This document shows positions 24,233 through 51,225 of a DNA stretch of 64,000 nucleotides, piece by piece (the stretch's first letter is position 1; each line of letters begins with the position of its first letter). Origin of the DNA: Actinomycetota bacterium. Lineage in GTDB: Bacteria > Actinomycetota > Acidimicrobiia > IMCC26256 > VFJJ01. The notes below the pieces were generated by a model. It saw only the letters and a program-made list of their open reading frames with translations, was not told the origin of the DNA and searched no databases. The translations under genes and the position numbers were made by a program. The stretch lies in the NCBI GenBank assembly GCA_009886115.1, contig VFJJ01000036.1, positions 10,800 to 74,799 of the forward strand. The letters are read 5' to 3'.

Positions 24233-24238
24233 GCCGTC

Positions 24239-25207: not shown

Positions 25208-25222
25208 CGGGGTGAGCGGCCG

Positions 25223-34645: not shown

Positions 34646-35833
34646 TCAGCCCCGGGGGAGCCCGAGCAAGCGCTCGCCGATGATCGTGCGCTGGATCTCG
34701 TCGGTGCCGCCGGCGATGCTGGCGACCTTCGACCAGAGCCATTGCCGTTGCCAGCGGCCGTCGCCGGGGTTGCCCACCGCGCCAGCCCACAGCGGGCCGG
34801 CCTCGGCGACGACCCGCAGGCCGGTCTCCGAGAGGTGCTGGGTCATGTGGGCCCAGTGCAGCTTGACCCAGCTCGACTCGGCTCCGGGTTCACGCCCACG
34901 GCCCAGGCTCGACAGCGTCCGCAGGTTGTGCATGCGCAGCACCCGCAGGGCCACGAAGTCGTCGGCCAGGGCGTCGGCCACCGCCACGTCGTCGAGGCGC
35001 CCGTTGGCTCCGGCGAGCCGATACAGGTCGTCGAGGAAGATCTCGTGGACGGCCTGCTCCTTGAACGGGAAGGCCGTTCCTCGCTCGTGGGCCAGCGTGG
35101 TCGTCGAAACCCGCCAGCCGTCGTGCAGCTCGCCGATGAGCGACGAGTCGGGCACGAACACCTCGTCGAGGAACACCTCGCAGAACTCGGCTTCGCCGGT
35201 CGCCTGCACGAGTGGGCGCACGTCGATCCCGGGGGCCGACATGTCGATCGCAAGGCAGCTGATCCCGCGGTGCTTACCCGCGTCGGGGTCGGTACGGAAC
35301 AGGCCGAAGCCCCACGCCGCGAACTGGGCGTACGACGTCCAGACCTTCTGGCCCGTCACCAGCCAACCGCCGTCGACGCGATCGGCCCGCGTTGACAGCG
35401 CGGCCAGATCGCTGCCGGCGCCCGGCTCGGAGTAGAGCTGGCACCAGATCTCGCTGGCGTCGAGGATGCGCGGCAGCCATCGGCGCTTCTGCTCGTCGGT
35501 GCCGTGCGCCAGGATGGTCGGGCCGACGTTGTTGACGCCGACCCGGTTGACGGGCTGCACGGCGCGGGCCCGCGCGTACTCCACGTTGAAGGTGGCCACC
35601 TGCACGGGCGCGGCGCCGCGGCCGCCGTACTCACTGGGCCAGTGGATGCCCACCCAGCGGTCACGAGCCATCGTCGACTGCCACTCGCGACCCCACGCCA
35701 CCTCCGCCGCTGTGCGCTCGTGCGGCGGGAGCAGGGCCCACTCGGCCAGCGGCGGCCGGCGCACGTTTGCCGCCAGCCAGGCTCGGACCTCGTCGGCGAA
35801 CGCCGCTTCCTCGGGCGAATACGAGAGATCCAC
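34646..35833 (-). CDS. acyl-CoA dehydrogenase
   Basis: ORF 34646..35965(-) trimmed to GTG 35833 (VDLSYSPEEAAFADEV...), 2 nt after the upstream stop. Motifs: LYSEPGAGSDLAALSTRA, VTGQKVWTS and GGTDEIQRTIIGERLLGLP. Confidence 0.9.
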   Translation of the reverse strand: MDLSYSPEEAAFADEVRAWLAANVRRPPLAEWALLPPHERTAAEVAWGREWQSTMARDRWVGIHWPSEYGGRGAAPVQVATFNVEYARARAVQPVNRVGVNNVGPTILAHGTDEQKRRWLPRILDASEIWCQLYSEPGAGSDLAALSTRADRVDGGWLVTGQKVWTSYAQFAAWGFGLFRTDPDAGKHRGISCLAIDMSAPGIDVRPLVQATGEAEFCEVFLDEVFVPDSSLIGELHDGWRVSTTTLAHERGTAFPFKEQAVHEIFLDDLYRLAGANGRLDDVAVADALADDFVALRVLRMHNLRTLSSLGRGREPGAESSWVKLHWAHMTQHLSETGLRVVAEAGPLWAGAVGNPGDGRWQRQWLWSKVASIAGGTDEIQRTIIGERLLGLPRG

Positions 35834-35835
35834 GG

Positions 35836-37689
35836 TCAGAGCTCCCAGAAGCGTTCGCGTCCGGTGGCCGTGAACGCTTTGCGGAGTCGGGTCTCGTCGG
35901 CGGTCGTGAAGGGGCGAAAGACGGACTCGCCCCGCAGTCGCACGAACACGGGATCGCCCCCACACCGATCAGCCCGGAACTTCTGATGCTGCAAGGCCCG
36001 CACGACGACCTTGTTCGTACCCGTCGACGGGAAGCTCGTCGTGATGCGCACGTACCGGGGCCGCCATTTCGGCCCGAGCGACGGCTGGGAGTCGAGCCAG
36101 GCCGAGAAGGCGACCGGATCGAACGGTGGGGCGTCGGAGCGCAGCAGAAGGCACGCCATCACCTGATCGCCGGCGGCGTCGTCGGGCACGCCGTAGACCG
36201 CAGCCAGCGCGACGTCGGGGTGGAGGCGGACGACCGCCTCGATCGGGCCGGCGGGGAAGTTCTCGCCGTCGACCCGGATCCATTCGGCCGAGCGCCCGGC
36301 GAAATAGAGGAAACCCGCCTCGTCGACATACCCCAGATCGCTGCTCCAGTACCACCCCATGCGGGTGAGGCGCTCGGTGGCTTCACGGTTGTTGTAATAG
36401 CCCTCAAAGGCCCCGGTGCCGCTGGTGTTCACGATCTCGCCCACGCATTCGTCAGCGTTCAGGAGACGGCCTGCGCCGTCGATGCGGGCGCGGGGCAGCT
36501 CGGTCCCGTCGTCGGCGACCACCCGTACGCCCGGACCCGGCACGCCCAACGCGCCCGACGGCACATCGCCATCGCGGTTGACGGCGATGCCGCCCTCGGT
36601 CGCGCCGTAGGTGTCGATGATGTCGACCCCGAACCGGCGAGCCGCAGCTTCGACGACTTCGGATGCGCCCTCGTTCCCGAACGCCACGCGCAACGGGTTC
36701 TCGGCGTCGTCAGGCCGTTCCGGCGTGCCCAGCACGTACGACAGTGGCTTTCCCACGTAGTTGAAGTAGGTCGAGCCGTAGTGCCGGATGTCGGACAGCC
36801 AGCGCGAGGCGCTGAAGCGACGGGCCAGTCCGACGCCGGCTCCGTTGACCAGAGCCGGGGCCCATCCCACCATCAGCGCATTGGAGTGGAACAGCGGCAT
36901 GCACAGGTAGCCGATGTCGTCGCCCGTGAGGTCCATGATCATCCCCATGCGATTCCCGGTGACGAGGAACCTCCGCTGGGTGCAGATCACGGCCTTGGGT
37001 GCGTCGCTCGTTCCCGAGGTGAAGATCAGCGCCCAGATCGTGTCGGGGGCCGGATCGAGCCCGGGATCTGTGGCCGGCTGCCGGGTCAGTGCGCCGGCGA
37101 GCGACTGGTGCCCCACGCCGGGCGTGCTCGCATGCATGCCGTCACCGCCAACGCCGTCGGCCTCGTCGGGGAAGCGATCGAGCAGGTACACGCCGCCGGT
37201 GAGCGCCCCGAGATCGGCGCCGTCGAGCAGGGCCAGGTGCTGGCGCTCGACGAGCAGCGCCAGGCAGTCGGTGTGGGCCAGGTCGCGAGCGAGGTGCTCG
37301 CCGCGACGGGTGGGGTTCAGCCCGACGATCGCCGCGCCCGCCAATGCCGCCCCGCCGAAGGCGAACAGGTAGTCGGGGGTGTTGTCGGAGAGGATGGCCA
37401 CGTGGAACGGCCTCGCCCCTGAAGGGTCGGCGGCGTCTCGACAGGCCAGGAAGAGCTGAGCGAACCGGCACGACTCCTCGAAGAACTCGGCATGGGTCCA
37501 CGCACGAGAGTCGAAGCGCAGGTGCACCCGGGAGGCAATGCCAGGATCACCAGGCGGCCCTTGGGTCAGCGGGCCGCGCCCGGCGTTTCGCCTCAAGAGC
37601 GCAGCCCCGTTGGGCGCAACCATCGGAGCCTGCCCGGGCAGCGGTATCTCGCGCGCGGGCGCCGGGCCGATTCCTGACATCGGCGTCAT
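35836..37689 (-). CDS. acyl-CoA synthetase (AMP-forming, FadD-like)
   Basis: ORF 35836..37749(-). It has the AMP-binding motif IFTSGTSDAPKAV and TYGATEGG. The start is uncertain: ATG 37689 is chosen, ATG 37623 is possible. The track's TTG 37749 lies inside a 15-bp-stem hairpin. Confidence 0.85.
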   Translation of the reverse strand: MTPMSGIGPAPAREIPLPGQAPMVAPNGAALLRRNAGRGPLTQGPPGDPGIASRVHLRFDSRAWTHAEFFEESCRFAQLFLACRDAADPSGARPFHVAILSDNTPDYLFAFGGAALAGAAIVGLNPTRRGEHLARDLAHTDCLALLVERQHLALLDGADLGALTGGVYLLDRFPDEADGVGGDGMHASTPGVGHQSLAGALTRQPATDPGLDPAPDTIWALIFTSGTSDAPKAVICTQRRFLVTGNRMGMIMDLTGDDIGYLCMPLFHSNALMVGWAPALVNGAGVGLARRFSASRWLSDIRHYGSTYFNYVGKPLSYVLGTPERPDDAENPLRVAFGNEGASEVVEAAARRFGVDIIDTYGATEGGIAVNRDGDVPSGALGVPGPGVRVVADDGTELPRARIDGAGRLLNADECVGEIVNTSGTGAFEGYYNNREATERLTRMGWYWSSDLGYVDEAGFLYFAGRSAEWIRVDGENFPAGPIEAVVRLHPDVALAAVYGVPDDAAGDQVMACLLLRSDAPPFDPVAFSAWLDSQPSLGPKWRPRYVRITTSFPSTGTNKVVVRALQHQKFRADRCGGDPVFVRLRGESVFRPFTTADETRLRKAFTATGRERFWEL

Positions 37690-37714
37690 CGTACGCCGAA
37701 CCCCGCATCGCCGA

Positions 37715-37760
37715 CCAGGAGTGAGTTGTGCCCCCCATGAGCCGGACAACTCACTCCTGG
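37715..37760. terminator. perfect 15-bp-stem hairpin between the SDR and acyl-CoA synthetase genes
   Basis: CCAGGAGTGAGTTGT-N16-ACAACTCACTCCTGG read directly. There is no U-tract. Confidence 0.5.
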
Positions 37761-37800
37761 TGGGGCGCTGGGGGGTGGGGCGCTGGGGGGTGGCGGGTGG
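37761..37800. repeat. 15-bp G-rich tandem repeat (TGGGGCGCTGGGGGG x2.6), G-quadruplex-forming pattern
   Basis: tggggcgctgggggg tggggcgctgggggg tggcgggtgg read directly. It contains four or more G4-G6 runs separated by 1-4 nt on the plus strand. Confidence 0.85.
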
Positions 37801-37812
37801 ATCCGACGGGGC

Positions 37813-38715
37813 TCAGGAGCGGGCCGTCGACTGCGCCAGCCCGCCAGGCATGACCATGCCCACCGGCTGCAGATGCTGGCCCAGGGTGGCATCGAAGGCG
37901 TCAGCCACCTGGGACGGCGTCCAGCCACCGTCGCGATACATCCACGAGATCTGGCGCGGGGTCTGGAAGAGCGTGAACGAGTACTCGGTGCGCCCGAAGA
38001 TCTGTCCGTTGACGTGCCCCGCACGATCGGACGACAAGAAGGCGACGAGCGGGGCGTTGAGCGAGGGGTCGAGGTGTGCCGGCGGTTCCGCGTCGCCCAT
38101 GAGCCCCATCGTCATCCGGGTCGCGCCGGCCGGAGCCATGGCGTTCACGGTCACGCCGTAGCGACCCAGCTCGAGCGCCCACACGAAGGTCATGCCCATC
38201 AGGCCGGCCTTGGCTGCGCCGTAGTTCGTCTGGCCGAAGTTGCCTCGGAGGCCCGCCGATGAGGTGATGTTGATGATGCGCCCGTACCCGGCGTCCTTCA
38301 TCAGCGGTGCGGCGTGACGGGAGCAGTTGAACGCGCCCTTCAGGTGGACGCCGATCACGGCGTCGAAATCGGCCTCGTCCATCTTCACGAGGCTCTTGTC
38401 GCGCACGATCCCGGCGTTGTTGACGAGGATGTCGACCTTGCCGAAGGCGTCGACCGCGGTCTGCACGATGCGCCCGGCTCCGGCGAAGTCGGCGACCGAG
38501 TCGTGGTTGGCCACGGCCTGTCCGCCAGCAGCCTCGATCTCGGCCACGACCTGCGCGGCCGGATCGTCGGCTTGGTCGGTCGTGCCGTCGAGGCGGGCCC
38601 CGAGGTCGTTGACGACCACGGCGGCTCCCTCACTCGCCAGGCACACGGCGAACCCTCGGCCGATCCCTCGTCCGGCTCCGGTGACGATGGCGACGCGTCC
38701 GTCGAGCAGTCCCAT
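37813..38715 (-). CDS. SDR-family oxidoreductase (3-hydroxyacyl-CoA dehydrogenase-like)
   Basis: ORF 37813..38715(-). Motifs: TGAGRGIGRG, NNAGI and YGAAKAG. Its partner is a MaoC dehydratase, as in type-2 multifunctional enzymes. Confidence 0.9.
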   Translation of the reverse strand: MGLLDGRVAIVTGAGRGIGRGFAVCLASEGAAVVVNDLGARLDGTTDQADDPAAQVVAEIEAAGGQAVANHDSVADFAGAGRIVQTAVDAFGKVDILVNNAGIVRDKSLVKMDEADFDAVIGVHLKGAFNCSRHAAPLMKDAGYGRIINITSSAGLRGNFGQTNYGAAKAGLMGMTFVWALELGRYGVTVNAMAPAGATRMTMGLMGDAEPPAHLDPSLNAPLVAFLSSDRAGHVNGQIFGRTEYSFTLFQTPRQISWMYRDGGWTPSQVADAFDATLGQHLQPVGMVMPGGLAQSTARS

Positions 38716-38748
38716 GGTGTTCCTCTCCTTGCGACGAGCTCGGCGGGG

Positions 38749-39162
38749 TCAGGCCGCTGCGGCGGCGGTCGCGGTACCGGTCATCACGACCGAGCCGTCC
38801 TGGCGGGTGGCCGTGAGGGCGAGGTCGACCGTGCCGGACGCGGCGTCGATGGCCGTGATGGCGGCGCTGAACGTGAGCGTGTCGCCCGGCCAGACCTGCT
38901 TCGAGAACCGCACCCAGTACGAGCGCATCGCCGTGGGCCCGAACCAGTCCTTGACGACCCGGGCCATGAGCCCGGCGGTGAGCATCCCGTGGCCGAAGAC
39001 CGAAGGGTTGCCGGCCTTGGTGGCGATGGTGTCGTCGTGGTGCATGGGGTTGAAGTCGCCCGAAGCCCCGGCGTAGCGGACGAAGTGCGTTCGGGTCAGG
39101 TTCTCGACCACGAGCTCGGGGGCGGCGTCGCCCACGTTCAGATCGGCAATTCGCGGAGCCAC
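38749..39162 (-). CDS. MaoC-like (R)-specific enoyl-CoA hydratase
   Basis: ORF 38749..39162(-). Hot-dog motif: YAGASGDFNPMHHD...GHGML. Confidence 0.9.
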   Translation of the reverse strand: MAPRIADLNVGDAAPELVVENLTRTHFVRYAGASGDFNPMHHDDTIATKAGNPSVFGHGMLTAGLMARVVKDWFGPTAMRSYWVRFSKQVWPGDTLTFSAAITAIDAASGTVDLALTATRQDGSVVMTGTATAAAAA

Positions 39163-39254: not shown

Positions 39255-40001
39255 ATGGCCGACCAGCATCCGATCGGAGGCGCCGACGTTGACCGACCCG
39301 CGCGTCGGTCAACCCGGGGTACCGGAGCCTCGTCTGGCGCCGCTGGCCCCATCGGCGGCGTCGATGCGGTACGCGGGGGCACACCCGCGCAGACCCGCGA
39401 GCTGCGGGCTCGGGGCCGCCGGAGCATCAGGCGACTTCTCGACGCCGGACGTGTCGTGATCGACCGACGCGGGTTCCACTCGGCCCGCGTCGAGGACATC
39501 GTCAAGGAAGCCGAGATCTCCCACGGAACGTTCTACCTGTACTTCGCGAGCAAGGACGAGCTGTTCCACGCCTTGGCCACCGAGGTCGCCGAGGAGCTCA
39601 CGGAAGTCGCCGCCTCGCTCGGCGAGGTCTCGCCCGGTCCGTCAGGACGTGCCGAGCTGCGTGGATGGCTCGACCGCTTCGCCGCCGCCTACCAGCGCAA
39701 CGGGTCGATCATCCGAGCCTGGACCGAGATCGAGGTGGGCGACAGCGAGCTCGGTCGGCTCGGCACCGACGTCCTGGCCGGGTTCTCGTCGAGTCTCGCC
39801 CAGCGGGTCAGCCCGGGCATCGCCCCCGACCTCGAGGTCGAAACAGCGTCGCTGGCCTTGATGGCGATGGTCGAGCGGGCCTTGTACTACTCGACGGCCG
39901 GCCAGACCAACGTCGAGCTCTCGCGGTTGCTCGACACGATGGTGGGGGCGATCCACGACGGCCTGTTCGGTCGCAACCCCGTCGAGGCGTGCCCGTCGTG
40001 A
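39255..40001 (+). CDS. TetR/AcrR-family transcriptional regulator
   Basis: ORF 39255..40001(+). The HTH IDRRGFHSARVEDIVKEAEISHGTFYLYF is closely similar to the TetR at 13378. The exact start is uncertain because the N-terminal ~45 aa are low complexity. Confidence 0.85.
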   Translation: MADQHPIGGADVDRPARRSTRGTGASSGAAGPIGGVDAVRGGTPAQTRELRARGRRSIRRLLDAGRVVIDRRGFHSARVEDIVKEAEISHGTFYLYFASKDELFHALATEVAEELTEVAASLGEVSPGPSGRAELRGWLDRFAAAYQRNGSIIRAWTEIEVGDSELGRLGTDVLAGFSSSLAQRVSPGIAPDLEVETASLALMAMVERALYYSTAGQTNVELSRLLDTMVGAIHDGLFGRNPVEACPS

Positions 40002-40066
40002 CACCCACCGGCTCGACACCCACCGGCTCGACACCCACCCGCTCGACACCCACCCGCTCGACACCG
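40001..40066. repeat. 15-bp tandem array (ACACCCACCSGCTCG x4.4) filling the tetR-transporter spacer
   Basis: Copies lie at 40001, 40016, 40031 and 40046, plus a partial copy at 40061. Copies 1-2 have G and copies 3-4 have C at position 10. The array starts at the last base of the tetR stop and ends 1 nt before the GGAGAG RBS. Confidence 0.9.
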
Positions 40067-40080: not shown

Positions 40081-42330
40081 GTGAGCAGCAACGACATCGG
40101 TGGTCCCGGCGCCGTCGATCCGACCGTCGATCCGACCGTCGGCTCGGCCGCGTCGCTGGCGGCAGCGGTACTCGACGAGGAAGCGGCGCGACAGGACGCT
40201 CAGGCTCTGGCCCGCGAGCAGATCCTCTTCCCCGACGAGCTGCTTCCCGGGGTGCAGTCCGAGCCGCTCACGCTCAGGCAGGGCTTGAAGATCGGCGGAT
40301 GGTCGACGTTCGTCATCCTCACCATGCTCAACTCGCTCGACGAGCTCGAGGGCGCCGCGATCAGTGTGCTGGCCCCTGACATCCAAGAGACGTTCGGGGT
40401 GAGCGAGGGGACGGTCGTCTTCATCGGCACGGCTTCGGCCACGTTCTTCGTGCTCGGCGCCGTCCCCATGGGCTACCTCGCCGACCGGATCAAGCGGGTG
40501 CCCATCGTTGGTTGGGCCAGCCTGTTGTTCAGCGGGTTCGTGGTGCTGTCGGGCTTGGCCGTCAACGCGTTCATGTTGTTCTGGACGCGATTTCTCACCG
40601 GGATCGCCAAGGCCAACAACATCTCGGTGCACATCTCTTTGATCGCCGACACCTACCCGATCGGGGTCAGAGCCCGGCTGTCGGCCAGCCGCGACCTGTT
40701 CGGGCACGGGCTTGCGCTGTGCAGCCCCGTCTTGGTGGGCGGGATCGCCGAGGCTGCCGGCGGCGACGAGGGCTGGCGCTGGGCGTGGTACGTGCTCGGG
40801 GTCCCGAGCGCAGTCATGGCCATCGTCGCGTTCATCGCCCTGCGCGAGCCCCAGCGGGGCCGCTACGAAAAGGAGGACGTGCTCGGACAGCTCATCCAGG
40901 ACGAGAACCCGGCGCCCATCTCGATGGAGGCCGCGTTCGCCCGGCTCAAGAAGATCCGATCGATCCGTTCGGTTCTCGTGGCCTTCAGCGCCTTGGGCTT
41001 TGCGCTGTTCAGCCAGGGCACGCTGGGCAGCCTGTATCTCGAGGACAACCTCGGGGTCGAGAACGCGCTCGACCGGGGGCTCTTGCTCTCGCTCTCGGGT
41101 TTCGCCGCGCTCCCCGTCCTGCCCTTCGTCGGGCGCTACTTCGACCGTCTGTACCGTCGCGATCCGTCCAAGGCCATGGCCTTGGTGGGACTCATGATCC
41201 TGCCGTCGGCCCTGTTCACTCCGTTGCAGTACTTCGTTGGCGGCAAGGCCGGCTTCGTGGTCTTCGGCATCCCCCAGGCGATCCTCACCACGTCGGCGTT
41301 CGCCATGGTGGGCCCGGTGATGCAGGCAGTCGTCCCGTATCGCTTGCGGGGTATGGGCGCGGCGCTGTCGACGTCGTACATCTTCTTCATCGGCGGGACC
41401 GGGGGCGCGCTCATCGCCGCCTTCATCACCGACACCTCAGGGCCCAGAGCGGCAGCCATCATGCTCGGGATCCCCACGAGCATCATCGGCGGGGCGATCC
41501 TGGTCAACAGCGCCCGCTACATCCGTAACGACCTGTCGCTCGTGGTGCAGGAGCTCCAGGAGGAGCTCGACGAGCACGCCAAGCGCCACGATCTCGGGCG
41601 CCCGGCCCCCGCGCTCCAGGTCGCCAACATCGACTTCTCGTACGGGCCGGTCCAGGTGCTCTTCGACGTGGGCTTCGAGGTGGAACGGGGCGAGACCTTG
41701 GCCCTGTTGGGAACCAACGGCGCCGGGAAGTCGACCATCCTCCGGGTCATCTCGGGCCTGGGCACACCAGAGCGGGGCGTGGTGCGCCTCGCCGGGCGCA
41801 ACATCACCTACGTCTCCCCCGAGGACCGGGCCCGACTGGGCATCTTGCAGCTCCCCGGCGGCAAGGGCGTGTTCCCGAGCATGTCGGTGACGAAGAACCT
41901 CGAGCTCAGCGCCCGGCTGATCGAGCGCCCCCCCGAGGAGATCGAGCGGCGCATGGGCCGGGTCTTCGAGCTCTTCCCCATGCTGGCCGAGCATCGGCGC
42001 CACCCGGCGAGCAGTCTCTCGGGAGGCCAGCAGCAGATGCTGGCGTTGGCTCGGGTGCTGCTGCACGATCCCGAGGTGCTGCTGATCGACGAGCTCTCGC
42101 TGGGCCTGTCACCGGTCGTGGTGCAGCACGTCCTCAAGGTGATCGACGAGCTCAAGGCCCAGGGCCAGACGATGATCATCGTCGAGCAGTCGCTCAACGT
42201 GGCCCTGGCGGTCTCCGACCGGGCGATCTTCCTCGAGAAGGGCCAGGTGCGCTTCCAAGGCGCCGCCAGCGAGCTTGCAGCGCGTGACGATCTGGCCCGG
42301 GCCGTGTTCTTCGGGCACGAAGGCGGTTGA
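40081..42330 (+). CDS. fusion protein: MFS-like polytopic membrane domain (N) + LivF-type ABC ATPase (C)
   Basis: ORF 40081..42330(+), GTG start with GGAGAG RBS 7 nt upstream. Residues about 65-490 are hydrophobic, with an MFS motif-A-like loop GYLADRIKRVPIVG. Residues about 510-749 carry Walker A GTNGAGKST, signature LSGGQQQMLALARVL and Walker B LLIDELSLGLSP. Confidence 0.85.
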   Translation: MSSNDIGGPGAVDPTVDPTVGSAASLAAAVLDEEAARQDAQALAREQILFPDELLPGVQSEPLTLRQGLKIGGWSTFVILTMLNSLDELEGAAISVLAPDIQETFGVSEGTVVFIGTASATFFVLGAVPMGYLADRIKRVPIVGWASLLFSGFVVLSGLAVNAFMLFWTRFLTGIAKANNISVHISLIADTYPIGVRARLSASRDLFGHGLALCSPVLVGGIAEAAGGDEGWRWAWYVLGVPSAVMAIVAFIALREPQRGRYEKEDVLGQLIQDENPAPISMEAAFARLKKIRSIRSVLVAFSALGFALFSQGTLGSLYLEDNLGVENALDRGLLLSLSGFAALPVLPFVGRYFDRLYRRDPSKAMALVGLMILPSALFTPLQYFVGGKAGFVVFGIPQAILTTSAFAMVGPVMQAVVPYRLRGMGAALSTSYIFFIGGTGGALIAAFITDTSGPRAAAIMLGIPTSIIGGAILVNSARYIRNDLSLVVQELQEELDEHAKRHDLGRPAPALQVANIDFSYGPVQVLFDVGFEVERGETLALLGTNGAGKSTILRVISGLGTPERGVVRLAGRNITYVSPEDRARLGILQLPGGKGVFPSMSVTKNLELSARLIERPPEEIERRMGRVFELFPMLAEHRRHPASSLSGGQQQMLALARVLLHDPEVLLIDELSLGLSPVVVQHVLKVIDELKAQGQTMIIVEQSLNVALAVSDRAIFLEKGQVRFQGAASELAARDDLARAVFFGHEGG

Positions 42331-42332
42331 GC

Positions 42333-45185
42333 GTGATCGCAACCTGGGTCACCTGGAACCTGCTGTTCCAGGGCTTCGTCAACGGGCTCGTGATCGCCAT
42401 GCTGGCCATGGGTGTGGTGCTCGTCTACCGGGCGACGCGCATCATCAACTTCGCTGTCGGCGACCTTGGCGTCCCAGCCGCGGCGCTCTTGGCCCTGGCC
42501 GCCAACCGCTACGGATGGCCCTACTGGCCGGCGCTCATCGCCTGCCTGGTTGTGGGCCTGCTCTCGGGGACCATCATCGAGCTCGCCGTCATCCGCCGCC
42601 TCTTCGCGGCCCCCCGGGTGATCGTGCTCGTGGCCACGATCGGCGTCGCCCAGCTCGCCCAGGCCATCACCATCGCCCTGCCCGAGCTCACCCGGGCGGA
42701 GGCCGTCAACTTCCCCACCGCGGTGACCGGGCGGTGGGAGCCCGGTGCCGGCATCGTGATCGAGGGTCCGCAGGTGATGATTCTCGTCATCGTGCCCTTG
42801 ATGGCTTTGGGATTGTGGTTCTTGTTGAGCAAGACCCGATTCGGCGACTCGGTTCGGGCGACGGCCACGAACTCCGATCTGGCCCGCCTGACGGGCATCA
42901 GCCCGAAGAAGATCTCCACGATGGTGTGGGCGGTGAGCGGTCTCATCTCGGCGACATCGGTCATCCTCATCGCCACCGACACGAACAACACGTCGAACCT
43001 CACGGCCATCGGGCCCAACACGCTGCTGCGGGCCATGGCGGCCGCGCTGATCGGCGGCATGGCATCGTTCCCACTCGCTGCGCTGGGCGCCGTCGCCATC
43101 GGTGTCGGGCAGTCGCTGCTGTTCTACAACTTCCCCGCGCAGACCGGTCTCACCGAGTTCGCGCTCTTGATCGTGGTGCTGGTGCTGGTGGCCCGGGTGA
43201 GCCGCCGAGCCGAGGGCGGTGGCGAGAGCTTCCAGTTCGCCCCTCGGGTCGAGGCCGTCCCCGAACGCCTGCGCCAGCTCCGCTCCGTGCGGATGCTGCC
43301 GTACCTGTTGCCCATGTTGGGACTGATCGTCGCCGTGCTGGCGCCCGTTCTCGTCGAGCGACCGTCGCGCCATTTCCTGTACGCCATGATCCTGGCCTTC
43401 GCGATCTGCGCGATCTCGGCCACCGTGCTCACCGGTTGGGCCGGGCAGCTCTCCTTGGGCCAGATGGCCTTCGCCGGCCTGGGCGCCTTGAGCGCAGCGG
43501 CGTTCACGCGCGGGATCTCGGTCGACATCGGGTGGGGCGATCATCGCATCCTCAAGGAGACGTTCCCCACGGTCCCGTTCGTCCTCGCGATCGTGTTGGG
43601 GGCCGTGGTGGCCTCCGTGGCCGCCGCGCTCGTCGGGGTGGGTGCGTTGCGGGTACGGGGCCTCCTGCTCGCTGTCGGGACGTCGGCGTTCGCCATCGCC
43701 TGTCAGGCGTACATCTTCCGGCGGCCCATCCTCTCGGGCGACGGCGGATCGACCGTGCGCCTCAAGCGCGGGTCGCTCGCCGGCATCGACTTCGGGGTCC
43801 GACAACGCACCTACTACTACGCCGTGCTGATCGCGCTGGTCGTGGTGCTGATCGTCGTGGCCCGTCTACGCCGCAGCGGAATCGGCCGTTCGATCATCGG
43901 CGTGCGCGAGAACGAGCAAGCAGCTGCGGCGTACACCGTGTCGCCGGCCCGGGCCAAGCTCACGGCCTTCGCCGTTGCCGGAGCGATCGCCGGCTTGGGG
44001 GGAGCGCTCTTGGGCGCGTTGGTGGAGACGATCGGCTACCAGGAACGGTTCTTTCGCACCTCCGACTCGCTGGCCCTGGTGTCCATGGTCGTCATCGGCG
44101 GTCTGGGAACCTTCGCCGGACCCGTCATCGGCGCGGTGTGGGTCGTCGGCCTCCCCGCATTCTGGCCCGGCAACGAGGTCGTGCCGCTGCTCACATCGAG
44201 CATCGGGCTGCTGATCTTGTTGCTGTACCTCCCCGGCGGCTTCGTGCAGATCGGCTACTCCATCCGCCGGTCACTGTTCCGCTGGCTCGAGCGCCGGCTC
44301 CCGAGCGCGGTGAACAAGACCTCGATCGAGCCACCAGCGGCACTCAACCGGGGGTTTGCGCGCGCGCTGCCGGGCGGCGAGCTCGCCAGTGACGGCGTGG
44401 TACTGCGGACCGTCGACGTGTCGGTGCGCTTCGGCGGGCTCGTCGCCGTCGACAGCGTCTCCTTCACCGCCCGGCGAGGCGAGGTGGTCGGGCTCATCGG
44501 CACCAACGGCGCGGGGAAGTCGACCCTCCTGAACGCCATCGGCGGCTTCGTACCCGCGACGGGCACGGTCGAGCTGCTGGGACGTGACGTCACCGAGCTC
44601 GACGCTGCCCGCAGAGCCAGACAGGGCTTGGGTCGAACGTTCCAAGCGGCATCGCTGTTTCCCGAGCTGACCGTGCGCGAAACCGTCCAGCTCGCGCTCG
44701 AAGCGCGCCAACGGACCTCGTTCACGGCCACGGCCCTGTTCCTGCCGAGCTCGATCCGCCTGGAGCGTCGCCGGCGGGTCGAGTCGGCCGAGCTCATCGA
44801 CTTCCTCGGCCTCGGTCGCTACGCCGATCGCTTCATCGCCGAGCTCTCGACGGGGACCCGACGCATCGTCGAGCTCACGGCGATGCTGGCGGTGGCCCCG
44901 GCGGTCATTTGTCTCGACGAGCCCACGGCCGGGGTCGCGCAGCGCGAAGCCGAGGCGTTCGGTCCGTTGATCAAGAGGATTCAGCGCGAGCTCGACGCCA
45001 CCCTCGTGGTCATCGAGCACGACATGCCGCTCATCCTGTCGATCAGCGACCGGGTGTACTGCATGGAGTCGGGCCAGGTGATCGCCGAGGGCACGCCGAC
45101 CGAGATCCGTAACAACCCCAAGGTGATCGCGTCGTACCTCGGCACAGACGAACGCGCCCTCAACCGAAGCGACGCCACCGTGTGA
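42333..45185 (+). CDS. triple fusion: LivH-like permease + LivM-like permease + LivG-type ABC ATPase
   Basis: ORF 42327..45185(+). GTG 42333 is preferred because GAAGG lies 9 nt upstream; TTG 42327 is the alternative. The LivH-like N-terminus is FQGFVNGLVIAMLAMGVVLVYRATRIINFAVG. The LivM-like middle is LTGWAGQLSLGQMAFAGLGA. The ATPase has GTNGAGKST, LSTGTRRIVEL and ICLDEPTAGV. It overlaps or abuts the upstream stop. Confidence 0.85.
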   Translation: MIATWVTWNLLFQGFVNGLVIAMLAMGVVLVYRATRIINFAVGDLGVPAAALLALAANRYGWPYWPALIACLVVGLLSGTIIELAVIRRLFAAPRVIVLVATIGVAQLAQAITIALPELTRAEAVNFPTAVTGRWEPGAGIVIEGPQVMILVIVPLMALGLWFLLSKTRFGDSVRATATNSDLARLTGISPKKISTMVWAVSGLISATSVILIATDTNNTSNLTAIGPNTLLRAMAAALIGGMASFPLAALGAVAIGVGQSLLFYNFPAQTGLTEFALLIVVLVLVARVSRRAEGGGESFQFAPRVEAVPERLRQLRSVRMLPYLLPMLGLIVAVLAPVLVERPSRHFLYAMILAFAICAISATVLTGWAGQLSLGQMAFAGLGALSAAAFTRGISVDIGWGDHRILKETFPTVPFVLAIVLGAVVASVAAALVGVGALRVRGLLLAVGTSAFAIACQAYIFRRPILSGDGGSTVRLKRGSLAGIDFGVRQRTYYYAVLIALVVVLIVVARLRRSGIGRSIIGVRENEQAAAAYTVSPARAKLTAFAVAGAIAGLGGALLGALVETIGYQERFFRTSDSLALVSMVVIGGLGTFAGPVIGAVWVVGLPAFWPGNEVVPLLTSSIGLLILLLYLPGGFVQIGYSIRRSLFRWLERRLPSAVNKTSIEPPAALNRGFARALPGGELASDGVVLRTVDVSVRFGGLVAVDSVSFTARRGEVVGLIGTNGAGKSTLLNAIGGFVPATGTVELLGRDVTELDAARRARQGLGRTFQAASLFPELTVRETVQLALEARQRTSFTATALFLPSSIRLERRRRVESAELIDFLGLGRYADRFIAELSTGTRRIVELTAMLAVAPAVICLDEPTAGVAQREAEAFGPLIKRIQRELDATLVVIEHDMPLILSISDRVYCMESGQVIAEGTPTEIRNNPKVIASYLGTDERALNRSDATV

Positions 45186-45245: not shown

Positions 45246-46262
45246 TCACGCGGCGAGTGCCCGGCGAACGTCGGCCGCGAACGCCCACGGGCGGCTCAAC
45301 ACCTCGTGGCGGGTGGCATAGAGGATCCGCCACCCCAGGCTCACCAGGGCGTTGTCGCGGGTCACGCCCGACTCCCACGACTGCCGATCGTGGTGCCACT
45401 GGTACCCATGGAACTCCACGCCCAGCCGATGCTCGGGCCAGGCCAGATCGAACAGGGCGACGCAACCGTCGGGCCGCACGATCTGCAACTGTGTCTCGGG
45501 GCGCGGTACACCGGCCGCCGTCAGCTCATCGAGCAGGCGACGCTCCATCCGGGAGTCGAGCGGCTTCCAGCTCGCAGGACGCGCTGCGAGGAGCCCCCGC
45601 ATCACCCCGGCGCCTCGTCGGCCCTTGCCGGCGTTGGCCGCGAGCCGCTCGACGAGCTCGTCTCGGCCCACGAGCCTGCGGCGCCAGGCGTCATCGAGCG
45701 CCACCTCGACCCGCCATCTCGGCGGGATCGCCGCGAGGTCGATGAGCGTGCGGGCCGGTGCCGTGACCCGCCACGGTCCGATCTCGACGATGTCGACCGG
45801 ATCGATCGCGGCCAATCGGTGCACGACCGCTCCGGTCGGAGCGACATGGGTCGAACGGGACACGGTGAGCTCGACCGCGGCCGATCGGAACCCGTCGAGA
45901 CCGTGCACCCATGCGGCAGCCCGGTGCGACACCACGCCGTCGCGTCCGATCTGGAGCGCGGCGGCCATGAGGTCGTGGCCCGGCACCGCCGACGGAACAC
46001 CCGCGAAGCGGAACACGTCGGGGTGCACCCGGTGGAGGCGCCCGGCTGCCAGCCTGCGGATGGCCCAATCGTCGTCAAGGCCGACGTCACGCGCCTCGCT
46101 GCGATGGAACACCCCGAAGCGCAGCGCGGCCCTGGCTGCGAGCACACGCTCCCGACCGAGCCACCGCTCCCGACCAGAGGTCTCGAGCCGATGCTCCTCG
46201 AGACCAGGCGGCGCGACGGGAGCGCTGTCGGATGTCGTCGGCGGGAACAGGTGTGGCTTCAT
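45246..46262 (-). CDS. DUF559 (Vsr-like endonuclease fold) protein with AbiEi-like N-terminal wHTH domain
   Basis: ORF 45246..46262(-). The N-terminal GVFHRSEARDVGLDDDWAIRRLAAGRLHRVHPDVFRF is AbiEi_4-like. The C-terminal LFDLAWPEHRLGVEFHGYQWH...RDNALVSLGWRILY is DUF559-like. Confidence 0.8.
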   Translation of the reverse strand: MKPHLFPPTTSDSAPVAPPGLEEHRLETSGRERWLGRERVLAARAALRFGVFHRSEARDVGLDDDWAIRRLAAGRLHRVHPDVFRFAGVPSAVPGHDLMAAALQIGRDGVVSHRAAAWVHGLDGFRSAAVELTVSRSTHVAPTGAVVHRLAAIDPVDIVEIGPWRVTAPARTLIDLAAIPPRWRVEVALDDAWRRRLVGRDELVERLAANAGKGRRGAGVMRGLLAARPASWKPLDSRMERRLLDELTAAGVPRPETQLQIVRPDGCVALFDLAWPEHRLGVEFHGYQWHHDRQSWESGVTRDNALVSLGWRILYATRHEVLSRPWAFAADVRRALAA

Positions 46263-46385: not shown

Positions 46386-48194
46386 CTACCGCTGCGGAGC
46401 TACCCGTGAGGGCCGGAGGCGGCGGCCGGGACGGGCACCGGTGGGAACGCCACCCCGGGTCGCGACCACACCGTTCACGCACGACAGCACGATGCCCGTG
46501 GCGTCGGTGACGAGCCTGCGCCCGCCGGCGGGCTGATCGGCGACGAAGCGCACGCCGGTGGTCGCCACGCGATCGGGATCGAAGAGCACGAGATCGGCGG
46601 CCAGACCACGGCGGAGGAAACCCCGGTCACCCAGCCCCAGGAGCGTGGCCTGATCGCCGGTGAGCTTGGCGACGGCTGCTTCCAACGAGAGCACCCTCGT
46701 CTCCCTCACCCAGTGCTGCAACGTCCAGACGGCGTAGCAGCTGTCGGTGTTGGCCAGCACGTGCGCGCCGGCATCGGAAGCTCCGATCATCGCTGCCGGA
46801 TGGGCGACGAGCCGAGCCACCCGGTCGTCGTCGCCGTTGCGCATCACCGCGGCCACCTGGGTCTCGAAGTTGTCGGCCAAGACCAGATCGAGCAACACGT
46901 CGACCGGATCGGCCCCGACCCGCGCCGCGAGATCGGCGAGCGAGCGGCCCCAGACCCCGGGCTGGTGCGTGTAGCGCACGAGGACGTGCTCCCAGCGCCC
47001 CGAGAACACCGGTGTCGACGGCATCGCTGCGCCCTCGACGCGGAGCCGGGCCCGACCCGCGGGATCAGCAGCCAAGCGGCGCACGGCATCGGCCGCGTCC
47101 GCTCCCACGTCCGCGCCCCCTCCCGCGCCCGCTGAACGCACCGCAGCGAGCAACGTGGGCAGCGAGCGCACGACCACGCCCGTTCCGTCGAGTCGGGTCC
47201 AGAGCTCGAAGGGGCGGGTGGAGATCTGCGGGACGACCATGACCCCGGGCCGGCGCCCGGCCAGCGTGCAGTCGAGGATGTGCTCACCCAGCCCGGGATC
47301 ACCGTGATCGTCGAAGACGGGACCGACCACCACGGCCCGGCCCGAGGCGGCCGCCAAGCGCTCGTGCCAGGCCAGGTCGGCCTGGCGCTCGGCCCGTCCC
47401 TGCAACAAGGCGGCGTTGGCCATGGTGAACAAGCCCGGTCCGGGCCCGGCGCCCAACACCCGAGCAAAGCCCAAGAGCTCGCCCTCGCCACAGACCTGTC
47501 CGGGCAGCGCGGTTCCGCCCGGACCGGGGTTGCCGATCACCTGGTCGGTCGAGAAACCCAACGCTCCCAAGGCCAAGCCGTCGGCGAGCAGGCGGCCCAT
47601 CTGCACGATCTCGGCATCGGTCGCAATGCGCTCGTGCACGTCGGGTAGGCCCAGGACGGCTGCCCGCAGCGGGACGTGCCCCACCAGGAAAGCGTGGTTG
47701 CACAGTGTCGAGAGCCCGTCGAGGCGGGCGGCGTACGAGGCGAGATCGTCCCAGTCGAACGGGACGCCGGCCCTGATGGCCGCCTCGGGGATCTGCTCGA
47801 CGGTGCTCATGGCCGAGACGATGTAGTCGCGCTCGGCCTCAGAACCCAACGGTGCCAAGGCGTACCCGCAGTTGGCGGTGACCACGGTCGTCACCCCGTA
47901 ACTCGAGGACGGGGTCACGTCGCCATCCCAGAACAGGTTGGCGTCGAGATGCGTGTGCGGATCGATGAACCCCGGCGCCAGCACCAGCCCCCGCCCGTCG
48001 ATCTCCTCCCGCCCACGACCCGGGCGGCGGCCACCGGCATCGGCACCGGCATCGGCATCGACATCGATCTCGCTGATGCGGCCGCCCGAGACCGCGAGAT
48101 CGCCCTCCCGGCCAGGAGCGCCGGTTCCGTCGACGAGGAGCGCCCCCCTGATGACGATGTCGTGGTCGGCCCGGCGACCGCTCCCCGGGCTCAC
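46386..48194 (-). CDS. D-aminoacylase-like amidohydrolase (Amidohydro_3 type)
   Basis: ORF 46386..48194(-). The GTG start overlaps the upstream stop (GTGA). It has IRGALLVDGTG...APGFIDPHTHLD metal-binding HxH. A low-complexity insert DVDADAGADAGGRRPGRGRE is present. Confidence 0.88.
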   Translation of the reverse strand: MSPGSGRRADHDIVIRGALLVDGTGAPGREGDLAVSGGRISEIDVDADAGADAGGRRPGRGREEIDGRGLVLAPGFIDPHTHLDANLFWDGDVTPSSSYGVTTVVTANCGYALAPLGSEAERDYIVSAMSTVEQIPEAAIRAGVPFDWDDLASYAARLDGLSTLCNHAFLVGHVPLRAAVLGLPDVHERIATDAEIVQMGRLLADGLALGALGFSTDQVIGNPGPGGTALPGQVCGEGELLGFARVLGAGPGPGLFTMANAALLQGRAERQADLAWHERLAAASGRAVVVGPVFDDHGDPGLGEHILDCTLAGRRPGVMVVPQISTRPFELWTRLDGTGVVVRSLPTLLAAVRSAGAGGGADVGADAADAVRRLAADPAGRARLRVEGAAMPSTPVFSGRWEHVLVRYTHQPGVWGRSLADLAARVGADPVDVLLDLVLADNFETQVAAVMRNGDDDRVARLVAHPAAMIGASDAGAHVLANTDSCYAVWTLQHWVRETRVLSLEAAVAKLTGDQATLLGLGDRGFLRRGLAADLVLFDPDRVATTGVRFVADQPAGGRRLVTDATGIVLSCVNGVVATRGGVPTGARPGRRLRPSRVAPQR

Positions 48195-49402
48195 GCGTCG
48201 ACGGCTCGCCTGGTGGCGGCAAGCATCCCCGGGATACCCGTGATCGGGGCATCGCGCGACCAGCCATCACCCAAACGAGCCATGATCGCCGGCATGTCGA
48301 GCCGATAGAACCGAGCCGGGCCGTCGACGAAGATGGCCCGCTTGTCGGCGTCGGAGAGGTCGGAGCGGTCGCGCAGGATCTCGATGGGGTCGGGCCAGGC
48401 GCCGTCCTGGTGGGGCCAGTCGCTGGCCCAGAGCACCCGGTCGGCTCCGACGGTCGCCGCGCTCAGCACCAGCCCGGCGTCGGCCGGCTCGCCGGAGATC
48501 ACGCACTGGTCCCGGAACTGCTCGAGCGCTGATCGCGACCTCGGCGCGGACACCAGCGCCATCTTCTCGTAGGTCTGGTCGAGCCGGCCGAGCCAGTGAG
48601 CGAGCCAGCCCACGTCGCCTTCGAAGAACCCGACGCGGGCATCGGGGAACCGGTCGAGCAGGCCGCTGTCGATCACGTGCATCACGGCGAGCTGGAGTTG
48701 GATGGGCACCCCCATCTGCCACTGGCCCCGGTTCTTCCAGTGCCGGGACAGGCCCAGCGTGGGACTGGCCGGATTCGACGCATGGACCACGGCTGGGAGG
48801 CCGGCCTCGACGAGTCGGGCCCACAGCGCGTCGGTCTCGATGTCGGCGATCGTGCGCCCGTCAGGCGTGGGGATGGGCGAGAGCATCACGGTCGTGGCGC
48901 CGGCCGCGAGGACGCGGTCGAGCTCGGCCGCTGCCCAGTCGAGATCGCCCAGTGGCAGCACCGCAGCCCACCGCAAGCGCAGGGGATCGTGCGCGCAGAA
49001 GTCGGCGATCCAGCCGTTGTACGCCGAAGCCGAGGCGTTCGCGAAGCCTTGGTCGGGCAGGTCGTCGAGCCCCAGGGTCATGGTGGGAAACAGCACCGAG
49101 ACCGCGATGCCTTGGGCATCCATGAGCTCGATGCGCCGCACCGGATCGTGAGCGCCGGGGTCGACCTCGGTGTCGAGATCGATGTCGAGACGCCCGCCGG
49201 CGCTCAAGGCCCCGGGAGTGCACAGCGATCCGATCGTCCACTCGAAGGCCGTGGCCCGGCCGAAGAACCGCACCACCTCCCTGCCGTCTTCGCCGCGGGA
49301 GCTCGTCCACGCCTGATCGCGATAGCGCGCCGGGAGCCGTTCCCCCCACAGGGAGAACGGCTCCATCACGTGACCATCGGCGTCGATGATCGGCAGCTTC
49401 AC
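48191..49402 (-). CDS. amidohydrolase-2 (ACMSD/TIM-barrel metal hydrolase) family protein
   Basis: ORF 48191..49402(-), GTG start with GAAGGGG RBS. It has N-terminal IIDADGHVMEP and C-terminal WASDWPHQDG. Confidence 0.88.
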   Translation of the reverse strand: MKLPIIDADGHVMEPFSLWGERLPARYRDQAWTSSRGEDGREVVRFFGRATAFEWTIGSLCTPGALSAGGRLDIDLDTEVDPGAHDPVRRIELMDAQGIAVSVLFPTMTLGLDDLPDQGFANASASAYNGWIADFCAHDPLRLRWAAVLPLGDLDWAAAELDRVLAAGATTVMLSPIPTPDGRTIADIETDALWARLVEAGLPAVVHASNPASPTLGLSRHWKNRGQWQMGVPIQLQLAVMHVIDSGLLDRFPDARVGFFEGDVGWLAHWLGRLDQTYEKMALVSAPRSRSALEQFRDQCVISGEPADAGLVLSAATVGADRVLWASDWPHQDGAWPDPIEILRDRSDLSDADKRAIFVDGPARFYRLDMPAIMARLGDGWSRDAPITGIPGMLAATRRAVDA

Positions 49403-49518: not shown

Positions 49519-51045
49519 CTACTCGGCGGTGTTGAAGATGTCGGTGAGATCCTTCCAACCGCCGCTCTCGCCGATCGACGAGTCGAACGACTGGAGGCGG
49601 AACCCGTCGTTGGCGTCGTACTTGCCCTCGCCAAAGGAGCTGAAGGCGTTGGCAGGTATGTCGAGTGACGACAGCGAATGCACCGCGGCGGTCCAGCTCT
49701 CGTTGGTGAGGTCGGCTCCCGCCGCCTCGGCCACCTGCGTGAACACCGACAGCTCGTCGCACGCGTCGCGCACGGCGATGTAGGTCTCGAGGCGCTGCTC
49801 GCCCTCGGCCACGACGAGATCCTGGGGATCGATGACCGGGATGTCGGGGTTGGCAGCCTCGAAGATCGCGATGCACGCCTGCACCGCCGGCGTGCTGAAC
49901 TGCTCGCCGTTGGTGTCGTTGAGCCCGCCGACGCTGATCGCCCCCTCGTACGGGTTCGGCGAGACGCCTGCCGTGGTGAGGTCCTTGCCCTCGTTGATGA
50001 TCCCAGACGGGGCGTCGCCGATGAGCAGCAGCTCGGGGAACTCGGCCTTGATCTTCTGGACGAACTGGCGGGACCCGGCTTCCTGCCCGGCGACGATCAG
50101 CGTGTCGATGCCCTCGGTCCGCCAGCGCTCGATGAAGGCGTCGAGCTGGGCCTGGGCCTGCGTGGTGTCCTCGTCGACGATGTCGAGGATCGCCGTCGAG
50201 CCCCGTTCGATCCCGAGGTCGTCGAGCGCGGGCTCGATCACGCTCTCGGCCCGGATACCGGTCCTCGACGACGCGAGGATGCCGACGGTGCGACCTTCGA
50301 GGGTGCCGGCCTGCTCGAGCGCGCTCATGAGCACGCTGATCGTGCGCTCCGCCGTGACGTCGTTGGTGAGCAACAGCCCCGGCGGCGCCTCGTCGATCCA
50401 GGCCTGCTCGAGCTCGTGGCCGATGTGGATGGTCTCGTTGTCGCGGGTGATGCAGAGCTGGGCGTCGCCGGAGAAGTCGATGAACACGCCGAGCGTCGCG
50501 AAGACCTCTTCGTCCTGGGTCATGCTCACGCATGCCGCGAGCGCCTCCTCGTTTCCGATCGGGCAGTGCTTCTGATAGACGGGCTCGATGGTGCGGCCGA
50601 GGATGCCCCCGTCGGCGTTGATCGCGTCGATCATCGTCTGGTACACGAGCTCCTGATCGCCCCGCTCGAAGTCGATGAAGTCGGCGATGCACTCGTAGTC
50701 GACGTAGAGGACTCCGAGCTTGATCGACTCGGCGGTGACGCCACGGAACGAGTCGGTGAGCACGATCGCCTCGGTCGTCGTCGTCTCCGGAGCGGCGGTG
50801 GTTCCCGGCACGGTGTCGCCGGTGGTCGGCGCAGTGGTGGCCGCCGTCGTCGTCTCGGCTGACGGCGCGACCGTGGTGTCGCTCGGCGTCGCATCGTCGT
50901 CGTCGTCGCCGCACGCGGCTGCGAGAAGCGTCAGGGCGAACGCAACGGCCATGAGCCGCGCCGAGCGTCGCGTGGTGAACCGAGCGCTGGTCGACCGAGC
51001 CTTGGTGGACCGGGCGCTGGTGGATCGAGGTGTACCGATACCCAT
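49519..51045 (-). CDS. Liv-type (Peripla_BP_6-like) ABC substrate-binding lipoprotein
   Basis: ORF 49519..51087(-) trimmed to ATG 51045, with GAGGGGGG RBS. It has a basic repeat-containing n-region, then lipobox LLAAC followed by GDDDDD. Confidence 0.85.
   Translation of the reverse strand: MGIGTPRSTSARSTKARSTSARFTTRRSARLMAVAFALTLLAAACGDDDDDATPSDTTVAPSAETTTAATTAPTTGDTVPGTTAAPETTTTEAIVLTDSFRGVTAESIKLGVLYVDYECIADFIDFERGDQELVYQTMIDAINADGGILGRTIEPVYQKHCPIGNEEALAACVSMTQDEEVFATLGVFIDFSGDAQLCITRDNETIHIGHELEQAWIDEAPPGLLLTNDVTAERTISVLMSALEQAGTLEGRTVGILASSRTGIRAESVIEPALDDLGIERGSTAILDIVDEDTTQAQAQLDAFIERWRTEGIDTLIVAGQEAGSRQFVQKIKAEFPELLLIGDAPSGIINEGKDLTTAGVSPNPYEGAISVGGLNDTNGEQFSTPAVQACIAIFEAANPDIPVIDPQDLVVAEGEQRLETYIAVRDACDELSVFTQVAEAAGADLTNESWTAAVHSLSSLDIPANAFSSFGEGKYDANDGFRLQSFDSSIGESGGWKDLTDIFNTAE
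50966..51025. repeat. degenerate in-frame 15-bp tandem repeat (x4) in the signal-peptide n-region
   Basis: cgtcgcgtggtgaac cgagcgctggtcgac cgagccttggtggac cgggcgctggtggat. On the minus strand it encodes RSTSA/RSTKA/RSTSA/RFTTR. Confidence 0.75.
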
Positions 51046-51122
51046 GATTCCCCCCTCTAGTTCGGCCCCGGAAGGCCCGCATCGCACGGGTTCTCACTCG
51101 TGAACGGCGCCCGGCCGGGGTG

Positions 51123-51143: not shown

Positions 51144-51225
51144 TATTTCTCGGGGGCGCCAGGATCCCCGTGCGCCCGGGGTCACCATGTCGGTACCATC
51201 GGCCGACCACAGATCGAGGGGGAGC

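Follow-up and report, generated by a model that had tools for sequence, protein, structure and literature searches.

ATP-binding cassette (ABC) transporters and the major facilitator superfamily (MFS) form the two largest superfamilies of transporters. Their mechanisms are regarded as distinct, the former relying on ATP and the latter on an ion gradient. Among the ABC proteins, the HAAT importers (TC 3.A.1.4; LivJ/K–LivHMGF, Bra, Nat, and Urt) combine two BPD_transp_2 permease domains, a LivG-type ATPase with a BCA_ABC_TP_C tail, a LivF-type second ATPase, and a substrate-binding protein (SBP) that is a Peripla_BP_6/LivJ-type lipoprotein. Regulatory domains are attached to some ABC importer ATPases, such as MalK and MetN, and the composite sites of heterodimeric ABC transporters are asymmetric where one ATP site is degenerate. 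Among the MFS proteins, Spinster carriers (SPNS1/2, HnSpns) and the anion:cation symporters (ACS; DgoT, sialin) share a 12-helix fold with sequence motifs A and B. Here, we describe a gene pair that joins the two superfamilies, found in a 64,000-nucleotide stretch of contig VFJJ01000036.1 from a bacterium of the Acidimicrobiia (the whole stretch is referred to below as the window). Gene 1 encodes an MFS domain followed by a LivF-type ATPase, and gene 2 encodes LivH-like, LivM-like, and LivG-like segments in a single chain.

The encoded parts correspond to those of HAAT importers, together with a candidate cognate lipoprotein. Unlike HAAT importers, the locus joins LivH, LivM, and LivG in a single chain, places a 12-helix MFS domain at the N terminus of LivF, and has Gly in place of the Glu/Gln of the LivF Q-loop. 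The pair fits the structural definition of both a HAAT importer and an MFS transporter, and there is good support for its assignment as a HAAT importer that depends on an SBP and contains an MFS module that is obligatory and probably functional. No description of an MFS–LivF fusion was found in the full-text literature, a search that did not cover TCDB, so that a bare database entry is possible, and no NCBIfam model covers the fusion; the preliminary description of this DNA, which knew of no functional account of the architecture, agrees with this result. The fusion has long been kept in more than 300 species, including abundant Acidimicrobiia of soil, of wastewater (Microthrix), and of sponges, and such persistence implies a selective advantage in running an ABC and an MFS transporter together.

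Domain organization and conservation of the gene pair

In gene 1, Pfam MFS_1 matched residues 92–428 (E 4e-34; 118.4 bits against a gathering cutoff of 33.4) and ABC_tran matched residues 529–671. In gene 2, BPD_transp_2 matched in two stretches (E 1e-51; 175.8 bits against a cutoff of 26.8), followed by ABC_tran at residues 709–868 and the LivG tail motif BCA_ABC_TP_C at residues 917–942. The preliminary description had read gene 1 as an MFS domain plus a LivF ATPase and gene 2 as LivH, LivM, and LivG in one chain; both readings are borne out by these domain calls and, for gene 1, by an AlphaFold2 (AF2) model and Foldseek matches. It had also placed the start of gene 2 against or across the stop of gene 1, as is indeed seen at 42327–42330, where the TGA stop of gene 1 occupies 42328–42330 (Table 1). 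Stop/start overlaps of 0 to 4 nt recur throughout the corresponding loci of relatives.

The closest NCBIfam models were UrtE and LivF for the gene 1 ATPase (190.2 against a cutoff of 285.8, and 163.8 against 441, respectively) and LivG and UrtD for the gene 2 ATPase (205.3 against 362, and 188.8 against 304.1). Neither ATPase reached an NCBIfam equivalog cutoff, so that a substrate other than a branched-chain amino acid is conceivable.

In a protein search, more than 120 clusters of full-length sequences (700 to 760 aa) contained both the MFS and the ATPase domain, and a scan of one genome per species detected relatives of gene 1 in 308 species. Most belong to Acidimicrobiia (Aldehydirespiratoraceae, Ilumatobacteraceae, Ca. 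Microthrix, and the sponge-associated Ca. Poriferisocius); some are Streptomycetaceae, namely cultured Yinghuangia spp. Counts at the level of loci rest on 80 fetched loci, some of them from complete chromosomes and from cultured Yinghuangia strains; 76 loci were long enough to show the downstream LivH/M/G region. The MFS and ATPase domains lay in a single open reading frame (ORF) in 80 of 80 loci. LivH-, LivM-, and LivG-like segments followed gene 1 directly in 76 of 76 informative loci and formed a single ORF in 73. When the MFS part alone was compared with 1.8 billion cluster representatives, full-length fusions were recovered down to ∼31% identity. A sister clade includes a locus (L088) in which LivG is encoded separately while the MFS–LivF fusion is still kept, indicating that the MFS–LivF join is the defining feature and that the LivH–LivM–LivG join is optional.

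Such fusions could also arise as sequencing or assembly artefacts, through frameshifts or missing stop codons. Frameshifted entries do exist in the databases, among them P0204 (856 aa), an apparent SBP–MFS chimera that was considered as a triple fusion and rejected for its frameshifted low-complexity stretches; the gene call runs, with a frameshift, from an SBP gene into the start of a gene 1 homologue. Gene 2 is also broken before LivG in three long-read metagenome-assembled genomes. An artefact is nevertheless refuted by the recurrence of the same junctions in independent loci and in the full-length protein clusters, which leaves this explanation with virtually no probability. By this recurrence, the junctions, whose verification the preliminary description had proposed, are genuine, and the fusions are real and old. 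As a separate observation, gene 2 is ∼1100 aa long in loci of Aldehydirespiratoraceae such as L038 (12181–15489), with ∼150 extra residues before the LivG ATPase.

Table 1. Features of the fused gene pair and its surroundings (window coordinates)
Feature	Position	Strand	Residues or size	Evidence and remarks
Operon divergent from TetR	34646–39162	-		MaoC dehydratase, SDR, acyl-CoA synthetase, PimC-like acyl-CoA dehydrogenase
TetR-family regulator	39255–40001	+		79 nt upstream of gene 1; Pfam TetR_N, E 2.7e-15
15-bp tandem array	40000–40065	.	GACACCCACCCGCTC x 4.4	TRF; in the TetR–gene 1 spacer
Gene 1	40081–42330	+	749 aa	ORF list; GTG start
Gene 1, N-terminal extension	40081–40272	+	1–64	Cytoplasmic; precedes MFS domain starting at 40273
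12-bp repeat within first codons of gene 1	40112–40141		encodes DPTVDPTV	TRF
Gene 1, complete 12-helix MFS domain	40273–41511	+	65–477	Pfam, AF2, Foldseek
Gene 1, helical linker from TM12 to ATPase	41512–41613	+	478–511	AF2 helix 481–504
Gene 1, LivF-type ABC ATPase	41614–42330	+	512–749	Pfam, NCBIfam, Foldseek
Gene 2	42327–45185	+	952 aa from TTG, or 950 aa from in-frame GTG at 42333	
Gene 2, LivH-like permease domain	42327–43226	+	∼1–300	BPD_transp_2 stretch 13–287; tblastn, 80 loci
Gene 2, LivM-like permease domain	43284–44276	+	∼320–650	Second BPD_transp_2 stretch; hydropathy; conserved in 76 loci
Gene 2, LivG-type ABC ATPase	44394–45185	+	∼690–952	Pfam ABC_tran and BCA_ABC_TP_C; NCBIfam LivG
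MTES_1575/AbiEi-like gene	45246–46262	-		Pfam
Amidohydro_3 gene	46386–48194	-		Pfam
Amidohydro_2 gene	48191–49402	-		Pfam
Candidate cognate SBP lipoprotein, Peripla_BP_6/LivJ type	49519–51087	-		Pfam Peripla_BP_6, E 4e-8; lipobox LLAAAC
Second Liv locus, fused LivH–LivM	51187–53595		802-aa ORF	
Second Liv locus, LivG	ends 54464			
Second Liv locus, LivF	54464–55258			Follows LivG
Second Liv locus, SBP	55351–57282	-		Converges on the operon

Structure and relatives of the MFS domain

AF2 modelled full-length gene 1 with a mean pLDDT of 81.4 (pTM 0.77) and the MFS domain alone with a mean pLDDT of 87.6 (pTM 0.86), the latter as 12 helices in two six-helix bundles. The C-terminal join to a cytoplasmic ATPase fits the MFS topology, in which both termini are cytoplasmic. 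Foldseek searches with the full-length model were dominated by ATPase matches and were repeated with the MFS domain alone, which aligned over its full length with SPNS2 (E 4e-13; TM-score 0.74–0.82) and DgoT (E 4e-12); SPNS1, HnSpns, NorA, and sialin also gave full-length alignments. Sequence matches to SPNS1/2 in the PDB (E 1e-9 to 1e-7) agree with the structural ranking. Together with the Pfam match, these results support the MFS nature of the N-terminal domain, as first proposed. In contrast to Spinster and ACS proteins, to which identity is only 18 to 22%, the domain carries a C-terminal ABC ATPase, and in sequence it falls outside both subfamilies: the ACS model TIGR00893 scored 79.8 against a cutoff of 395, and aromatic-acid symporter models were also far below cutoff.

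Mean identity to the window over 77 loci was 56% for the MFS domain, 49% for LivH, 55% for LivM, and 68 to 69% for the two ATPases. Motif A, in the loop between transmembrane helices (TM) 2 and 3 (G131-YLA-D135-R136-IK-R139), is invariant in 54 sequences and reads GWLADRxxR over 91 members, the inner Gly of the consensus (G-x3-D-R/K-x-G-R-R/K) not being retained. Little or no variation is seen at the motif B arginine in TM4 (R170) or in a second motif-A-like loop (D355...R359). Conservation is weaker in the C-domain of the MFS module than in its N-domain.

Free-standing MFS proteins of 430 to 500 aa from Acidimicrobiia (the P0269 clade), with ∼31% identity to the window, belong to the same family and share with gene 1 an N-terminal LLSPG...LRE motif and a helix after TM12. 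Unlike gene 1, they lack an ATPase domain, and Liv genes are absent from their surroundings; on three long contigs (L085–L087, encoding P0300, P0274, and P0351), no ABC genes were found near them. The lineage can therefore work alone, which argues for a real transporter rather than a membrane anchor, and the MFS module of gene 1 is probably functional as a secondary transporter, as judged also from its conservation, on a par with LivH and LivM, its intact motifs A and B, and its model. The free-standing proteins are interleaved with fused sister-clade forms at 48 to 68% identity (48 to 62% for fused forms in SBP–LivHM(G) operons), a pattern implying that the ATPase domain was gained or lost recently within the Acidimicrobiia. 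The idea that a free-standing MFS protein might stand beside separate LivF and LivHM genes, in the manner of a Rosetta stone, was also pursued and was negative on the same three contigs.

Motifs of the two ATPases

The LivF-type ATPase of gene 1, whose top Foldseek match was 1ji0 (TM-score 0.90), has an intact Walker A (GTNGAGKST), signature (LSGGQQQ), and Walker B (IDE). Its Q-loop reads LPGGKGVF (41850–41882, residues 591–598), with Gly in place of the usual Gln or Glu. LPGG was found in 91 of 91 members and the canonical residue in none, whereas elsewhere in the window the residue is Glu in the ordinary LivF and Gln in both LivG modules. A Gln is often present two or three residues upstream of the Gly and might compensate. 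The LivG ATPase of gene 2 has a canonical Q-loop Gln and H-loop His and a degenerate signature, LSTGTRR. The term degenerate site, as applied to the composite site that these two features may form, is an extrapolation from motifs.

No other LivF-type gene was present in the annotated loci inspected (L001, L002, L004, L088, and L089), and in L003 and the window an additional LivF occurs only inside a separate, second Liv operon. The gene 1 ATPase is thus the only available second ATPase, and an ABC complex cannot assemble without taking in one MFS module.

Linker and N-terminal extension

The distance from D484, at the start of the helix after TM12, to D518, in the first ATPase strand, is 34 to 36 residues in 89 of 91 members, and the length of the linker is fixed within about one residue over proteins down to ∼31% identity. 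The linker begins DLSLVVxELxEE; the sequence of residues 499–509 is poorly conserved, although the length of this segment does not vary. In free-standing MFS relatives, the first half of the linker helix is also found at the C terminus. The N-terminal extension of gene 1 varies from 17 to 87 aa over 91 members and contains the motif [IL]F[PA]D[DE]LLPGV (conservation 0.86), to which the LLSPGDGPPLRE motif of free-standing MFS relatives is related. The FPDDLLPGV motif and the start of the linker helix were considered as fusion-specific coupling elements and rejected, equivalents being present in the free-standing relatives.

The fusion might serve co-expression only, providing 1:1 synthesis and co-localization of two independent transporters that have no conformational cross-talk. 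The existence of free-standing MFS relatives without an ABC partner nearby, the retention by the MFS module of all hallmarks of an autonomous carrier, and the poorly conserved sequence of the distal linker are consistent with this explanation. However, the fixed linker length, together with a Q-loop change that is family-wide and specific to the fused ATPase, suggests coupling rather than a loose tether; in addition, the pair comes with no second ATPase other than the fused LivF, making the MFS module indispensable for assembly, and the fusion is kept across the 308 species. A role in co-expression only is accordingly regarded as rather unlikely.

A second alternative, by analogy with MalK and MetN, is that a non-transporting MFS module might sense a solute, a lipid, or the proton gradient and switch the LivF/LivG ATPase. 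In this case, the accessory domain would be a whole N-terminal membrane transporter rather than the soluble C-terminal domain of MalK or MetN. Attachment of the MFS module, through a linker of fixed length, to an ATPase whose atypical Q-loop would face the degenerate LivG signature is consistent with such a switch, as is the weaker conservation of the MFS C-domain. The features that drive the rocker-switch cycle (motif A, motif B, and the second motif-A-like loop) are kept, however; no loss was seen in the cavity-lining helices of the AF2 model, and the close free-standing relatives are presumably ordinary transporters. A purely regulatory MFS module is therefore judged decidedly unlikely.

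The substrate-binding protein

The preliminary description was headed by the absence of a binding-protein gene. Taken literally, its statement that no SBP gene adjoins the pair is true of the window, where the nearest lies 4.3 kb beyond gene 2, but for the family as a whole it is misleading. SBP genes were counted in 71 informative loci with an iterated profile built from the SBPs of relatives. An SBP was found in the flanks of 54 to 55 of these loci and was directly adjacent (within 700 nt) in 33 to 34. Adjacent SBP genes were downstream and convergent in 16 loci, upstream on the same strand in 10, downstream on the same strand in four to five, and upstream and divergent in three. Pfam independently identified Peripla_BP_6 in 29 immediate neighbors, and in the annotated loci L002 and L004 a Peripla_BP_6 gene stands directly after gene 2 on the opposite strand. 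No second LivH/M permease was found near any of the 16 convergent SBPs, which indicates that those SBPs belong to the fused pair. The operons of the sister clade (L088, L089) have the order esterase–SBP–MFS.LivF–LivHM(G).

In the window, the SBP gene nearest to the pair converges on gene 2, with three minus-strand genes between. Its product has 47 to 50% identity (∼410 bits) to the convergent SBPs adjoining the fused pair in L002 and L004 but only 28% to the other window SBP, and L005 carries an 88% identical orthologue. The SBP profile gave remote matches to LIV-binding proteins in the PDB (best E 2e-6). Sequence comparison thus identifies this protein as a likely orthologue of the adjacent SBPs and the likely cognate SBP of the fused pair.

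These results bear directly on an SBP-independent Liv-type transporter, the possibility raised at the outset, in which the MFS domain would substitute for the periplasmic binding protein. The lack of an SBP gene touching the pair in the window and the 16 to 17 of 71 loci without an SBP in their flanks are compatible with substitution. Set against this are the SBP genes found next to or near the pair in some three quarters of the loci, their position within the operon in the sister clade, and the likely orthologue 4.3 kb away in the window; moreover, the modelled MFS domain has no extracytoplasmic domain able to dock on LivH/M as an SBP does. Replacement of the binding protein by the MFS domain is consequently considered highly improbable.

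Proposed mechanism

An SBP-dependent importer with an attached MFS module could operate as follows. The importer is built from two translationally coupled polypeptides, gene 2 supplying both permease domains and the LivG ATPase, and gene 1 supplying the LivF-type second ATPase preceded by a Spinster/ACS-like MFS domain, which would lie in the membrane beside LivH/LivM. Substrate would be delivered by a LivJ-type lipoprotein, in the window most likely the product of 49519–51087. The MFS domain, derived from or related to free-standing carriers, would be a working secondary transporter and not a dead anchor, and the length-invariant helical linker would hold it at a fixed distance from the ATPase. 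The composite site formed by the LivF Walker A, with its Q-loop Gly, and the degenerate LivG signature would probably be slow and regulatory, and the MFS domain would be attached there; the site formed by the LivG Walker A and the LivF LSGGQQQ, whose motifs are fully canonical, would probably be catalytic.

Such a complex would have two routes, serving either the same solute or solutes linked in metabolism; one would be high-affinity, ATP-driven, and SBP-fed, and the other gradient-driven through the MFS domain. The conformational state of one route might be passed to the other via the LivF domain. From sequence and model, we give this reading, with its cross-talk through LivF, about an even chance. 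The preliminary description had likewise offered a regulator of the ATPase and a dual-mode transporter, both of which are conceivable. A stronger form is an obligate primary/secondary hybrid, in which closure of LivG/LivF would move the MFS rocker-switch via the linker, or the reverse. This form is considered unlikely; if true, it would imply an ATP-gated MFS pathway, or an ABC ATPase gated by the proton-motive force or by MFS flux, an energy-coupling mode not known for either superfamily. As for the substrate, an organic acid or an amide-type nutrient is weakly favored over branched-chain amino acids because of the weak likeness of the MFS domain to organic-anion carriers and the variable catabolic neighbors.

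Several points weigh against this interpretation. Contact of the MFS domain with LivH/M is an assumption, and helix-by-helix conservation, highest in TM2 and TM4 and lowest in TM10 and TM12, gave no clear docking patch on the lipid-facing helices. Packing geometry might by itself account for the fixed linker length, with no need for allostery. The LivG signature of the second Liv locus is degenerate too, so that ordinary LivG/LivF pairs are already somewhat asymmetric. The loci without an SBP, from Aldehydirespiratoraceae and Microthrix, have none within 7 to 10 kb, and the window SBP also sits divergently beside the second Liv operon, which makes its assignment uncertain. The substrate proposal is a guess from sub-threshold similarities and non-conserved neighbors.

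If the modules do communicate, the pair would represent a natural case of cross-regulated primary and secondary transport, tractable through the cultured Yinghuangia strains. Even without cross-talk, recognition of the fusion family corrects the automatic annotations "MFS transporter" and "ATP-binding protein", and the LivF subunit is shown to tolerate a membrane appendage of 500 residues.

Neighboring genes and the second Liv locus

The TetR gene and the 15-bp array that the preliminary description had placed upstream of gene 1 are both present. The TetR gene is probably co-transcribed with gene 1. The same TetR–gene 1 arrangement occurs in a 94% identical relative (L003/L005), and TetR also flanks the operons of L088 and L089; as the immediate upstream gene, it was found in only two of 76 loci. 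The region upstream of TetR contained no convincing operator palindrome. The regulator may also control the divergent β-oxidation-like set, which is common only to the window and its closest relative and whose acyl-CoA synthetase (CasI/FadD-like) best matched steroid-22-oyl-CoA synthetase/FadD1, below cutoff. The 15-bp array is absent from the 94% relative by alignment, indicating a strain-specific expansion, and was rejected as a conserved regulatory element. Both 5' repeats are absent or different in that relative, which points to a locally repeat-prone, fast-changing 5' region.

The three genes between gene 2 and the candidate SBP gene are co-directional with the latter, and their membership of the transport system is uncertain; in the same interval, the 94% relative has only the MTES-like gene, without both amidohydrolases. 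Amidohydrolases occur downstream of gene 2 in eight of 72 loci (5 + 3), and Amidohydro_2 lies directly downstream of free-standing MFS relatives (L085, L086); this recurrence may be a clue to the substrate. Neighborhood statistics, in which a conserved enzyme partner was sought, returned only variable genes (SDR, O-methyltransferase, sulfatase, PhyH, FMN dehydrogenase, and amidohydrolases). Neighbors in loci of the L038 type include an SDR, a luciferase-like monooxygenase, a Schlafen/AlbA_2 protein, and an FMN-dependent dehydrogenase, with no binding-protein gene within 7 to 10 kb.

The Liv locus at 49.5–57.3 kb, previously described as canonical, does not consist of four separate chains, as its LivH and LivM are fused. 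Its layout, an operon facing a convergent SBP gene, is also that of the fused pair in relatives. An Rfam scan of the whole window returned no family at gathering score. Elsewhere, the window contains an unrelated ABC importer (23027–26017; SBP_bac_8 and two BPD_transp_1) and a hydantoinase B/oxoprolinase gene (59510–61435), and as a whole it is rich in genes for uptake and for amide and acyl catabolism.

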